Shown here piece after piece: positions 6,497 to 49,906 of a stretch of 64,000 nucleotides of DNA (position 1 is the stretch's first letter; every line of letters begins with the position of its first letter). The notes under the pieces are model-generated. The model was not told the DNA's origin. It worked only from the letters and a program-made list of their open reading frames with translations, and made no database searches. Source of the DNA: Eledone cirrhosa (Eukaryota). Made by a program: the position numbers and the translations under genes. The stretch is from NCBI GenBank assembly GCA_964016885.1, contig OZ024762.1, positions 16,058,001 to 16,122,000 of the forward strand. The letters are read 5' to 3'.

Positions 6497-6562
6497 TATT
6501 TTATCTGATGAGGACGTACTGAAAAAACAGCACAGTACCTCCGAAATATATATAATAATAAA
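6497..6562 (+). ncRNA. Type I hammerhead-ribozyme-like motif (Penelope-element type), family A
   Basis: ttttat-CTGATGA-ggacgtactg...cagtacctcc-GAAA-tatataTA-ataat. Core boxes, paired stem II and a minimal palindromic stem III are present; stem I has a mismatch. Confidence 0.6.
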
Positions 6563-6940
6563 AAATATATTTTGATTACGTGTATGTCTACATTTATTAA
6601 TATTTTGAATTAATATATATATATGTGTGAATGAAGTAATTCCGTCGGAAAAGTCCAGGAAAAAAGAGTGCTCTATGTAGGTAACAGAGCTTAATTATCC
6701 AAATTCAATAAACAAATCAGGATTTTTTCATTCTGAGGATTGAAAGCAAAACCTTTTGCTTTTAAGAAACCACTGGTAAATGGAATAATTGCCTTATGTT
6801 GTTTATTACATAATAATATTAATATATATATATATATATATATGGTGAACCTACAGTAACTGGACGTTACATTATTTTTATCTAAAGACATTTTTTCCAA
6901 TTTCATCCCGCCCATTCCCTCAATCTATCTTATTTCTCAT

Positions 6941-6976
6941 TCTTCTGATGAAGGACTAACGTCCGAAACGTTAAGA
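6941..6976 (+). ncRNA. Minimal type I hammerhead-like motif, family B
   Basis: tctt-CTGATGA-a-ggac(taac)gtcc-GAAA-cgTT-aaga. Stem I is tctt/aaga and stem II is ggac/gtcc. Confidence 0.62.
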
Positions 6977-7171
6977 CCCACTTCCTGCTATATCAAGCGT
7001 TAACCTAATATATCACTTCCATATACTGTACTGATTGTGTTGTTATTTGTGTTTACCTTTTACATACATATATATATATATATATATATATATATATATA
7101 TATATAAATACATATATATATATATATATATATATATATAGAGAGAGAGAGAGAGAGAGAGAGAGAGAGAG

Positions 7172-7370
7172 ATAACGAAGGAAATGTGGTAAGGAGCCAG
7201 ATGGACCATAACGCACCAGAGTACTCAATACTTAGGGTAGTAGAGTGGATAATAGCAAAAAGTATCACCCCGACGGCAAAGCTCAAGCCGTTTCGACGGC
7301 TGTTTCTGAGTCCAGAAATAGTCGTCGAAACGGCTTGAGCTCTGCCGTCGGGGTCATACTTTTTCCTATA
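7172..7370. mobile_element. Palindromic insert family P
   Basis: Same arms (ccgacggc..gagctcaagccgtttcgacggct / reverse complement) and tail, in opposite orientation, between microsatellites. Confidence 0.6.
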
Positions 7371-7630
7371 TATATATATATATATACATACAATATATTA
7401 ATAAATGGAAACTATATTTATAAAACCATATTTATTTTATACATATTTCAAGGGCAACCAAGGCAAATTATGGTGCGCTTTCATCAGATAAAATAGATTT
7501 GTTTTATAAATAAATATTGACATACCCGGAAAAAAAGACAACCTTAACGGTTGGAGCTTCCTGGATTGTGGAGATAATATTTTATTGAGGGTAATACAAT
7601 GTTATGAGTGAGTATGCAAATGAGTGTCTG

Positions 7631-7696
7631 TATTTTATCTGATGAAAGCGCACCATAATTTGCCTTGGTTGCCCTTGAAATATGTATAATAAAATA
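7631..7696 (+). ncRNA. Type I hammerhead-like motif, family C (inverted copy at 7431-7495)
   Basis: tattttat-CTGATGA-aagcgcacca...tggttgccctt-GAAA-tatgtaTA-ataaaata, with a perfect 8-bp stem I. Confidence 0.72.
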
Positions 7697-7867
7697 AATA
7701 TGGTTTTATAAATATAGTTTCCATTTATTAATATATTGTGTATTTACTCCACTAATTTGTTGAGTGCTTTATATCAGTTATAAAAAATGTTTAAGCTTGT
7801 TGAATCCCAACAAATTAAATATAACCTCTTCATATATATATATATATATATATATATATATGTGTGT

Positions 7868-46116: not shown

Positions 46117-47070
46117 AGTAGTAGTAGTAGCAGTAGTAGTAGTAGTAGCAGTAATAGTAGTAGCAGCAGTAGTAGTAGCAGCAGTAGTAGTAGCAGCAGT
46201 AATAGTAGTAGCAGCAGTAGTAGTAGCAGCAGTAATAGTAGTAGCAGCAGTAGTAGTAGCAGCAGTAGTAGTAGTAGCAGTAGTAGTAGTAGCAGCAGTA
46301 GTAGGAGTAACAGTACTACTGTAGTAGTAGTAGTAGTAACAGTACTACTGTAGTAGTAGTAACAGTAGTAGTAGTAGCAGTACTACTGGCAGTAGTAGCA
46401 GTGGTAATAGTAGTAGTAGTAGCAACAGTAGTAATAGTAGTAGTAACAGTAGTAACAGTCCTACTACTACTAGTAGTAGTAGTAATAACAGTGGTAACAG
46501 TAGTAGTAGTGTAGTAGTGGTAGTGGCAACAGTAGTAGTAGTGGCAGTGGTAGTAGTAGTAGTAGTAGTGTAGTAACAGTAGTAGTAGTAGTAGTAGTAG
46601 TAGTAGTAGTAACAGTAGTAGTGGCAGTGGTAGTAGTGTAGTAGTAGTAGTAGTAGTGGCAGTGGTAACAGTAGTAGTAGTGTAGTAGTGGCAGTGGTAA
46701 CAGTAGTAGTAGTGTAGTAGTAACAGTGGTAGTAGTAGTAACAGTAGTAGTAACAGTAGTAGTAGTAGTAGTAGTGTAGTAGTGGCAGTGGTAACAGTAG
46801 TAGTAACAGTAGTAGTAGTAGTAACAGTAGTAATAGTAGTAGTGTAGTAGTGGCAGTGGTAACAGTAGTAGTAGTGTAGTAGTAATAGTAGTAGTGGCAG
46901 TGGTAACAGTAGTAGTAGTGTAGTAGTAACAGTGGTAGTAGTAGTAGTAGTAGTAGTAGTAGTAGTAACAGTAGTAGTAGTGTAGTAGTTAGTAGTAGTA
47001 GTAGTGGCAGTGGTAACAGTAATAGTAGTAGTAGTAACAGTAGTAGTAGTAGTAGTAGTAGTAGTAGTGG
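46117..47070. repeat. Long imperfect (AGT/AGC)n trinucleotide tract
   Basis: Seen directly in the sequence. Confidence 0.95.
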
Positions 47071-47811
47071 TAAATAGGCTAAAATTACTTCTATATTTAG
47101 AGGATTTAGGTCAAGTTTAACAGTTGTAAATCTTCTGATATTTTTACCTTTGTTGATCAAAGTTGAGACATTCTCTCTCTCTCTCTCTCTCTCTCTCTCA
47201 TTCATTTTAAATGTTAGTTGCCAGTCAAGTCTATTGTGTGGAGGAGGCAGCATTGTGGGTGGGTGTATATATATATATATATATACACACACACACATGT
47301 ATCTGTTTGTGTGTGTGTATATATATATATATATATACACACACACACACAAACACACAAAGCATTTTATATATACATACATGTGTACTTGCTGACATAC
47401 ATACATATTTATAGACACAAACACACACACACAGCCATTATCTCTGGCTGTGGATTCACAGTATCAGTAGAGCGAGTGTCAGACAAACATGCTTTGCAGC
47501 ATAGAGTTACAGCCCTTTACCTTATGTGTTCAAACCCTGCCAATGTTAGCTTTACCTTTCATCCTTATAGAGCCGATAAAATAAAGTACCAGTAATGCAC
47601 TGGGTTGATATAATCGACTTTCTCCTCCCCCAAAATTGTTGGCCTTGTGCCCTAAATCAAAAACCCGTTATCTCTGGTTGCTCCTAGTTCTTTTGTTCTT
47701 TCTTTTGTTTTTTATTCCTTCCTTAATACTTTCGAAAAAAACTTTGATGAAAAAAACTGTTTGAAAATGTTTATATTTATTTATCTAAAGCCTTCCATCA
47801 TAATTTTATTC

Positions 47812-48458
47812 AACCCTTTACCATTTACATTACTCTATATTTACGATTCTATTTTCGTGGTAAAGGCTTTACCTTACATAATTATCTCACATAATATCGA
47901 ATCTATGAGATTTTGATATTATTTATTTTGAGAACAATACCATAACATCAGAATGTGTGGCCAGTTACAGCCGGTTTGAACAGAAAGAGGTGAGAGAATT
48001 CTGGTCGGATATGGCCGGTTTAAATCTCACATAACATCGAATCTATGAGATGTTGATATTATTTATTTTGAGAACAATACCTTAACATCAGAATGTGTGG
48101 CCAGTTACAGCCGGTTTGAACAGAAAGAGGTGAGAGAATTCTGGCCAGATATGGCCGGTTTAAATCTCACATAACATCGAATCTATGAGATGTTGATATT
48201 ATTTATTTTGAGAACAATACCTTAACATCAGAATGTGTGGCCAGTTACAGCCGGTTTGAACAGAAAGAGGTGAGAGAATTCTGGCCAGATATGGCCGGTT
48301 TAAATCTCACATAACATCGAATCTATGAGATGTTGATATTATTTATTTTGAGAACAATACCTTAACATCAGAATGTGTGGCCAGTTACAGCCGGTTTGAA
48401 CAGAAAGAGGTGAGAGAATTCTGGCCGGATATGGCCGGTTTAAATGCTAAAGGGTTAA
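47812..48458 (+). mobile_element. piggyBac-like MITE with 4 x 140-bp internal tandem
   Basis: Ends are ccctttaccattta / taaatgctaaaggg-TTAA. atctatgaga recurs at 47901, 48041, 48181 and 48321. Confidence 0.72.
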
Positions 48459-48753
48459 ATATATTATTTCTAATTGGTCACTCTGATCCATAGGTTTGGA
48501 CCATGATAATCTGTCCATCCTATGCCAGCATGGAAAGTGGATGTAAAATGATGATGAAGTATTTTCAATTTAGCTACATACTTAAATGGGCATTCTAATT
48601 AACAGGAAAGCTTTTTAATGTTCTATTAATTAACTGAAAAGGTCAACCATAATAGTAGATATTGGAAAATTGATAAAACACTTTATTTTAATAATTTAAA
48701 ATCAAATTTTGCTGGCGTCAATGTATGTGTGTAGTATGTAAGTGTGTCGTCGT

Positions 48754-49160
48754 CATCATCATCATCATCATCATCATCATTTTACGGCTGCTTTTCCCTG
48801 CTTGCAAGGGTGGGACGGGTCTTGTTCAACACAGCATCTCTCCACTTGTCACGGCTGCTTTTCCCTGCTTGCAAGGGTGGGACGGGCCCTATTCAGCACA
48901 GCATCTCTCCACTTGTCACGGCTGCTTTTCCCTGCTTGCAAGGGTGGGACCGGTCCTATTCAGCACAGCATCTCTCCACTTGTCACGGTCCTTCTTCATC
49001 TCCACCGTGAGCTCCAGCGATCTGAGGTCAGCTCTCACCACCTCCGCCCATGTTTTTCGTGGTCTTCCTCTAGCCTGTCTTCCTTCTACTGCGATTTCTT
49101 GGCACTTCTTTACCCAGCGGTCATCCTCCATGCGCATCACATGTCCACACCATCGCACAC
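48754..49160 (-). mobile_element. RTE LINE 3' fragment with triplicated ~72-bp end
   Basis: ORF MRWCGHVMRMEDDRWVKKC..GRPRKTW, three tandem copies of the terminal segment, and a (CAT)n tail. Confidence 0.85.
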
Positions 49161-49870
49161 TACAATCTTATCTCCCGCACACTACAATATTTCTTTGTGT
49201 ACATTATTTCTTTTTGTGTGTATGTGGCTTAGTGGTTAGAGCATTGGCCTTGCAATTGGAAGGTTGTGAGTTCAATTCTCAGACCGGGTGATGTGTTGTT
49301 TCCTTGAGCAAGACACTTTATTTCACATTGCTCCAGTTTACTCAGCTGTAGAAATTAGATGATAGGGACTGGGGTACATATCATTCCACTGCAAAGTGGT
49401 CGTGGAGGTGCCACGGCAAAAAAGCACCCAGCACTCACTGTAAATGAGGTTGGTGTCAGGAAGGGCATCCAGCTGTAGAAATCAATCCAGAATCAGTTCC
49501 CGTCCCACCCATGCAAGCAGGGAAAAGCGGACGTAAAATGAAATGAAATGAAATGAAATGAAATGATGTATGTATATTCATATATGATAATACACACACT
49601 CACATGTATACACACACATAAAAAAACTAAAACCTCAAAGATTTCACTTTATAAGACTCTGGGAACAACATGAAGCCACACACATCTACCAATTTCCTCC
49701 TTTCAACACACACAACCATACCTATGCCACCCTTTTGCCTTCCCCAGTCCGGACCCCCCCCCCCCCCCTCCATCACTATATATATATATGTATATATATA
49801 TATTTTTTTTAACTTCCTTCCCTAACCTTCTCACACTACTCCTGTGTATCTGTTCTCTCCTTATCCGAAC

Positions 49871-49906
49871 TTTCCTGAAGAAGGACTTCTGTCCGAAATG
49901 TTGAAA
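49871..49906 (+). ncRNA. Minimal type I hammerhead-like motif, family B
   Basis: tttc-CTGAAGA-a-ggac(ttct)gtcc-GAAA-tgTT-gaaa. Same layout as 6941-6976, with a different but still paired stem I. Confidence 0.6.

Follow-up and report, generated by a model that had tools for sequence, protein, structure and literature searches.

Minimal type I hammerhead ribozymes have been described in the pseudo-long terminal repeats (pLTRs) of Penelope-like elements (PLEs), where they occur mostly as dispersed single copies and do not cleave as monomers (Cervera and de la Pena, 2014; PMC4209133). Craig et al. (2021; PMC8557442) report inverted, 5′-truncated PLE copies and (TA)n targets, and include Hydra-1_Obim of Octopus bimaculoides; further background is given in PMC11167929, PMC13282606, PMC6962438 and PMC6765202. 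Here we analysed a 64-kb stretch of the 3.0-Gb genome of the octopod Eledone cirrhosa (contig OZ024762.1, positions 16,058,001 to 16,122,000; hereafter the window), in which a first-pass annotation had noticed numerous hammerhead motifs within introns of the DOT1L gene and had attributed them to remnants of several PLE families. We consider it very probable that these motifs are type I minimal hammerheads lying in 3′-end repeat pieces derived from PLEs, shown for three families and likely for seven, and that they are carried as inert passengers of the introns.

The motifs are real and their kind is known, whereas the families are new. They agree with the minimal hammerheads of PMC4209133 in having a conserved core, a short helix I and a palindromic helix III, and also in forming many families per genome, with dispersed singles and close opposite-strand pairs. 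Unlike in those, helix II of many copies here has an inserted 6-nt palindrome, an internal 2x2 loop or a greatly lengthened loop, and the G10.1-C11.1 pair is missing. Copy number is also far higher, with an estimated 1.3 x 10^5 copies here (80,000-213,000) against the 4,000-9,000 called remarkable in that account, although the descriptors behind the two figures are not the same. Non-LTR retrozymes (PMC7229834; bioRxiv 10.64898/2026.07.22.740005) are also PLE-related, of type I and present in high copy, up to 120,000 in axolotl, but the window has neither their head-to-tail arrays, in which each repeat of 150-450 bp has a hammerhead, nor their canonical helices; no core was covered by any of the 150 TRF rows listed, of 151. 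The domesticated amniote hammerheads of the RECK type (PMC6155905) are likewise intronic and on the sense strand, but they are single, canonical and conserved across species, whereas the window motifs are multicopy minimal repeat ends. No octopod hammerhead census was found in the literature searched, which covered few subscription papers. With these results a known kind of element gains octopod families and a very high count across the genome, and Hydra-type PLEs, known from few families, are shown to have left tens of thousands of ends in this host genome. The copies also provide many natural variants, among them long loop II, U.U at 10.1-11.1 and U4C, on which the dimer model and the role of PLE hammerheads could be tested.

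All 14 CTGANGA cores listed in the first-pass annotation were present at their given coordinates and strands. With hammerhead positions numbered in the usual way, a strict type I descriptor matched nine times in the window, at eight of the 14 listed cores and at a motif that had been overlooked, 6733(+). A relaxed descriptor, which admits a long loop II and one mismatch at 10.1-11.1 and was tuned after inspection of the window, matched 13 times, at 12 of the 14 and at 6733; 12 of the listed cores thus fold as type I hammerheads, with 7487(-) and 8526(-) failing. Both counts lie far above those in dinucleotide-shuffled sequence, where the strict descriptor gave means of 0.055-0.095 (three sets of 200 shuffles, maximum 2) and the relaxed one a mean of 0.03 (100 shuffles, maximum 1). 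The bare CTGANGA heptamer showed no excess (25 in the window, shuffle mean 25-29). Altogether there are 15 cores in 13 insertions, and in 13 of the cores (nine under the strict descriptor) CUGANGA, GAAA and UH follow one another as in type I, and both helix I and helix II are present. Seven insertions are solo copies, and the other six are fold-backs of the tail-to-tail kind; the pairs 7487/7639 and 32230/32384 each proved to be a single inverted insertion, which had also been overlooked. Where at least six unrelated families had been proposed, we distinguish ten sequence groups (A-J), two of which, A and B, share 67-75% identity and so are related. When U4C, C3U/G8A and other variants of the core were allowed, nothing in the window scored. 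Rfam scans of the window returned only microsatellite and hairpin miRNA noise, with no hammerhead among the 150 matches listed, of 324, and none in 6265-7060. Elsewhere in the genome RF00163 gave 18 scored matches, to other, more canonical families; a separate family with a GGAC/GTCC stem II (loci L001-L007) attains the Rfam Hammerhead_1 cut-off.

The pairing predicted for these motifs was examined among genomic copies. In 17 hand-picked copies of the A/B type, 96.8% of cells were paired, compared with 34-53% in slid controls. Helix II had two-sided changes at seven of its eight pairs, whereas the changes in helix I were one-sided only; across families, however, helix I used 13 different pairings. 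The stems thus covary among genomic copies. For stem III a search blind to that stem was used, which yielded 68 distinct motifs from genomic loci and the window; the 22 distinct stem III inserts among them contained 13 mismatches in 60 pairs where 35.5 were expected, and none of 10,000 shuffles was as low. The self-complementary stem III loops reported earlier (ATAT, ATGT, GATC, AATT and CG) were borne out, except that the loop at 16224 (GAAC) is incompletely self-complementary, stem III of its family, D, having an AA centre. The palindromic stem III is the dimer-type design described in PMC4209133.

A link to PLE coding sequence was found for three of the ten families, which account for 7 of the 15 cores. 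At genomic locus L160, family B cores lie in 338-nt direct repeats, 4.5 kb apart, that flank frameshifted reverse transcriptase (RT) and endonuclease (EN) pieces containing the RWK-type motif RWR, DKT and CxCX5C. In L066 and L063, Hydra-type endonuclease pieces have family A cores 0.8-1.6 kb downstream of them; L063 has 1.67 kb of the family A 3′ region in common with L065, and contributes the CxCX5C linker only, RT being absent from that locus. In L066 an RT+GIY-YIG frame that has a CX4CxxC linker is followed, 304 nt downstream, by family D. Families A and B (Hydra-type) and D (Neptune/Nematis-type) thus lie at the 3′ ends or in the pLTRs of RT/GIY-YIG elements elsewhere in the genome, the clade labels being assigned from motifs rather than from an RT tree, and that of D being a joint one because its CX2-5CxxC linker is common to both clades. 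Members of the Hydra clade (PMC8557442) resemble the A and B parents in having RWR, DKT (B), CxCX5C (A and B), GIY-YIG at the C terminus, (TA)n targets and a canonical hammerhead; the A and B parents, at more than 4 kb with 3′ regions of 1-2 kb, are larger than the "generally <3 kb" given there. A preference of both families for (TA)n is seen in the remnants, whose 3′ ends enter TA repeats. The window itself contains no PLE coding sequence, as tblastn with six PLE proteins gave no match there. The other seven families are likely also PLE-derived, because they share the same anatomy of palindromic stem III, (TA)n 3′ ends and tail-to-tail fold-backs. The PLE origin proposed earlier for all the motifs is thus supported by coding sequence for A, B and D and by shared anatomy for the rest.

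Two candidate parents were rejected. An RT piece beside a family A core in L057 belongs to a family whose intact 832-aa elements do not match the window motifs, and a 4.9-kb same-strand pair of family A copies in L062 encloses host-gene sequence and contains no PLE open reading frame (ORF). A young Hydra-type PLE family with an 832-aa open frame and a 1.5-kb pLTR was found at L127:1874-6071 (also L128-L134); of 150 scored matches, 94-98% identical when the query's own locus is set aside, many fall inside the 832-aa frame. Read by eye, its hammerhead shows U4C in the core and A.G at 10.1-11.1, and it matches none of the window motifs.

Genome-wide abundance was assessed by counts of exact patterns and half-motifs and by an estimate from a sample. 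Exact patterns matched 5,277 times for family A, 6,053 for B and 4,640 for C, and half-motifs 76,986 (5′ half) and 72,714 (3′ half) times for the A/B type (reversed controls 26 and 4), 16,031 times for D and 8,610 for C; over all patterns the reversed controls gave 0-26. The exact 3′ half accompanied 57 of the first 100 listed 5′ halves. Forty 10-kb blocks, picked blind at evenly spaced rather than random positions, contained 18 motifs in 400 kb, which corresponds to about 135,000 genome-wide (80,000-213,000). The 200 kb flanking the window contained seven. In a homology census, biased in that its queries came from the window, there were 20 arms in the 64 kb and 41 in the 400 kb. The commonest pattern has three matches in the window, and at least three were found in 15 of 165 64-kb bins at the start of chromosome C1. 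On C1, divergent pairs less than 1 kb apart outnumber convergent ones by 28 to 3.

The description of the population as dense is therefore correct locally, the window lying 4.5-fold above the background, but not as something exceptional, since over the whole gene the excess is 2.1-fold (p 0.03). In DOT1L introns 1-2 it is 5.1-fold, and the remaining ~82 kb of DOT1L introns contained no passing motif. About 16 equally dense windows would be expected among 46,810 if blocks were independent, an assumption that understates clustering. The density of (TA)n was rejected as the cause, as these introns have 20.9 runs per 10 kb compared with 29.5 in the background. Likely, the local excess reflects clustered insertion together with the choice of a dense window; the DOT1L locus is dense, but is not shown to be special. 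Clustered insertion would also fit loci L135-L159, which were chosen for one family B core and in which further hammerheads, from different families, often lie within 1.5 kb.

From known PLE biology, the remnants may have arisen as follows. The GIY-YIG endonuclease would nick at (TA)n or AT-rich DNA, reverse transcription would start at the 3′ end of the element, and early 5′ truncation, often with addition of an inverted second copy, would leave the hammerhead-bearing tip. Within a parent element, the palindromic stem III would let two copies in tandem pair with each other, and cleavage would be that of a dimer. For the DOT1L pre-mRNA, cleavage would be negligible, because most copies are predicted either to have no free partner nearby or to be buried in hairpins, and the pieces would be removed with the spliced introns. 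RNAfold, run with 350-nt flanks, gave stem I a probability of 0.08 or less in 10 of the 11 sense motifs; only for 16224 did the prediction retain both stem I and stem II within the flanking sequence (0.66-0.97). The predicted unpaired fraction of the core was 0.00 at 7639 and 32384, 0.11 at 34823 and 0.20 at 26818, and in the four insertions modelled the fold-back is predicted to bury the core in double-stranded RNA (dsRNA). Long dsRNA arms of -148 to -265 kcal/mol were predicted in the pre-mRNA at 7388-7740, 26215-26491, 26633-26922 and 32122-32490; such arms are possible substrates for A-to-I editing.

Several observations weigh against an origin of all the motifs from PLEs and against their being inert. 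Families C, E, F, G, H, I and J, with 8 of the 15 cores, had no link to a PLE ORF among the genomic loci examined, nor was such an ORF present at two tandem family C loci that were examined for a parent element. On the linked ORFs the Pfam matches to RT and GIY-YIG are under the curated cut-offs, and the clade labels are, as stated, motif-based. The G10.1-C11.1 pair is present in only 4 of the 13 passing motifs and an additional nucleotide between 9 and 10.1 in only 3, though both are typical according to Cervera and de la Pena, whose study itself describes variants (PMC4209133). Inactivity is a prediction from RNAfold, which omits dimers, co-transcriptional folding and proteins. Lastly, chance is the likely but not the proven origin of the local excess, because the 4.5-fold density (negative-binomial p 3e-4) and the sense orientation of all seven solo copies (p 0.016, post hoc) remain.

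Other explanations were weighed against the inert-remnant reading. A chance origin of the motifs in AT-rich repeat DNA might be suggested by the ordinary number of bare heptamers, but this is refuted by the complete motifs (9 and 13, where shuffles gave 0.03-0.1), which moreover covary and recur in multicopy families, and we give it practically no weight. It is also improbable, though less starkly so, that some of the unlinked families are non-autonomous retrozymes or short interspersed element-like sequences with a life cycle of their own. The seven families lacking an ORF link, and the finding that family C on C1 is nearly always solo (4 of 100 in divergent pairs), would fit that idea, but no core is covered by a tandem array, the stems are minimal rather than canonical, and in L153 a GIY-YIG piece is followed, 386 nt downstream, by a C-like motif that belongs to another family.

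The possibility that these PLE relics do act, some of them cleaving DOT1L pre-mRNA as heterodimers or in trans through an ATATRTAT stem III and so affecting splicing or decay of introns 1-2, draws on the compatibility of 6505 with 7639, 21359 or 32384 (all eight pairs of stem III, and cross stems I that measure 8 and 4 bp), on the occurrence of this stem III in tens of thousands of genomic copies, on the sense orientation of 11 of the 13 passing motifs and on the stems that 16224 is predicted to keep. However, the stem III duplex among the four motifs is weak, at -2.2 to -3.2 kcal/mol, hairpins are predicted to lock up both 7639 and 32384, the only unburied pair, 6505 and 21359, is separated by 14.9 kb, 16224 has no partner in the window, and PLE hammerheads are reported to cleave poorly even as dimers (PMC4209133). 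We therefore regard such cleavage as very unlikely. The same holds for a broader proposal, to which we attach only slight probability, in which ~1e5 hammerheads, many of them with a common palindromic stem III, would form a pool of interchangeable half-ribozymes in long introns, pairing between insertions or in trans and cutting nascent pre-mRNA, that of DOT1L included, while the fold-backs would supply long dsRNA for A-to-I editing; an effect on DOT1L or on nascent RNA generally would be important if true, but has no support yet. DNA contigs of four sequencing runs were dominated by repeat copies and gave no locus-specific match. A systematic skew, in which insertion or retention of PLEs favours the sense strand and first introns while the ribozymes stay inactive, seems improbable to us as well. 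It would account for the sense orientation of all seven solos and of 11 among the 13 passing motifs (p 0.022 for the latter) and for the 5.1-fold density of introns 1-2, but these tests are post hoc and concern one gene, and the later DOT1L introns are empty of passing motifs. On C1, the 387 listed positions left after removal of duplicates (100 each from three patterns, the A/B-type half-motif, C and D; the first 48 of 100 from A and 50 of 100 from B) gave 274 solo events, and solo pairs within 50 kb were on the same strand in 50 of 120 cases where 59.9 were expected, that is, without clustering. The power of this comparison, made without gene annotation, is modest, but if long genes set orientation, clustering should have appeared in it. 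The preference for the pre-mRNA strand noticed in the first-pass annotation is seen in the window but is not established, and finds no support in the strand-clustering test on C1.

The placement of the motifs within DOT1L introns was upheld by exon mapping, in which the motifs used to locate exons are those we take to be typical of DOT1L. An exon at 53625-53759 matched solved DOT1L chains at E 6e-15 and is 98% identical to one molluscan DOT1L protein, probably from Octopus, and three molluscan DOT1L proteins mapped to the + strand from exon 1 to ~132 kb. Exon 1 lies ~6 kb upstream of the window, exon 2 (41 nt) at 9801-9841 and exon 3 at 50206-50280, the whole gene spanning at least 138 kb. All window motifs therefore fall in the first or second DOT1L intron, and the pre-mRNA corresponds to the + strand.

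Intron 1 contains the first five insertions. A solo family B (Hydra-type) pLTR remnant at 6497-6635 (+), with its core at 6505, H17 at 6554 and stem III ATATATAT, is 78.5% identical over 121 nt to the L160 pLTR. It is followed by a solo family E remnant at 6708-6833 (+), which has an 11-bp stem II (core 6733, H17 6778, stem III ACCACTGGT), and by a solo family C remnant at 6800-7063 (+; 5′ boundary approximate), which terminates at (TA)n and whose core at 6945 (H17 6972, stem III ACGT) has an additional A between 9 and 10.1. The family A (Hydra-type) tail-to-tail fold-back at 7388-7830 is one insertion with cores 7487(-) and 7639(+) (H17 7688); it is 92-95% identical to L063 ends and is predicted to form a long hairpin, and relative to its twin 7487(-) is 3 nt short where the cleavage site and stem I lie. 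In the family F fold-back at 8407-8588 (-), core 8526(-) fails both descriptors and, in keeping with its earlier description as truncated, is missing the 5′ strand of its stem I, which was lost at the inversion junction. With 15 arms per 400 kb, family F is very common; it is mostly inverted directly 5′ of the core, and its stems I and III are atypical (8407-8588, L068, L071, L080, L082, L104 and L152).

Further downstream, the solo family D (Neptune/Nematis-type) 3′ remnant at 16154-16478 (+; core 16224, H17 16258, stem III AGAACT) matches the L066 RT+GIY-YIG element at its 3′ end with 81.9% identity over 375 nt, and a second solo family B (Hydra-type) pLTR remnant at 21163-21469 (+; core 21359, H17 21409, stem III ATATGTAT) is 92.5% identical over 307 nt to the L160 3′ pLTR. 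A family J fold-back at 26058-26491 (-; core 26381(-), H17 26278) has a long loop II and passes the relaxed descriptor only. In the family G fold-back at 26633-26922 (+; core 26818, H17 26867), which has a U.U mismatch at 10.1-11.1, the inverted copy pairs with GAAA, stem III and the cleavage site. Two more insertions pass only the relaxed descriptor, namely a solo family H remnant with a long loop II at 30592-30925 (+; core 30606, H17 30724, stem III ACGATCGT) and a family I fold-back with a 2-bp stem II at 34754-34959 (+; core 34823, H17 34851, stem III ACAATTGT). The family A tail-to-tail fold-back at 32122-32597, again one insertion (cores 32230(-), H17 32181, and 32384(+), H17 32433), has an arm-to-arm identity of 94.7% over 303 nt. 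The last, a solo family C-related remnant at 49869-49994 (+; core 49875, H17 49902), lies ~300 nt before exon 3. The 3′ ends of the 11 sense remnants all enter TA repeats or short stretches rich in TA. At 13432-13501 and 13561-13735 there are 3′ tails without a core, from families C and A.

A GC-rich fold-back repeat family with PLE-like anatomy, terminating at (TA)n and giving no ribozyme match, occurs in the window at 6261-6474, 7172-7369, 8718-8943, 30226-30345 and 30959-31208, and has 37 arms in the 400-kb background. The DOT1L introns also contain fragments of long interspersed element RT at 34234-33593 and 38681-39403 and large minisatellite arrays at 36710-38387, 41754-43682 and 55546-56399, with units of 123, 56 and 93 bp; a further long array extends from ~58700, after the DOT1L exon at 58595, to the end of the window.

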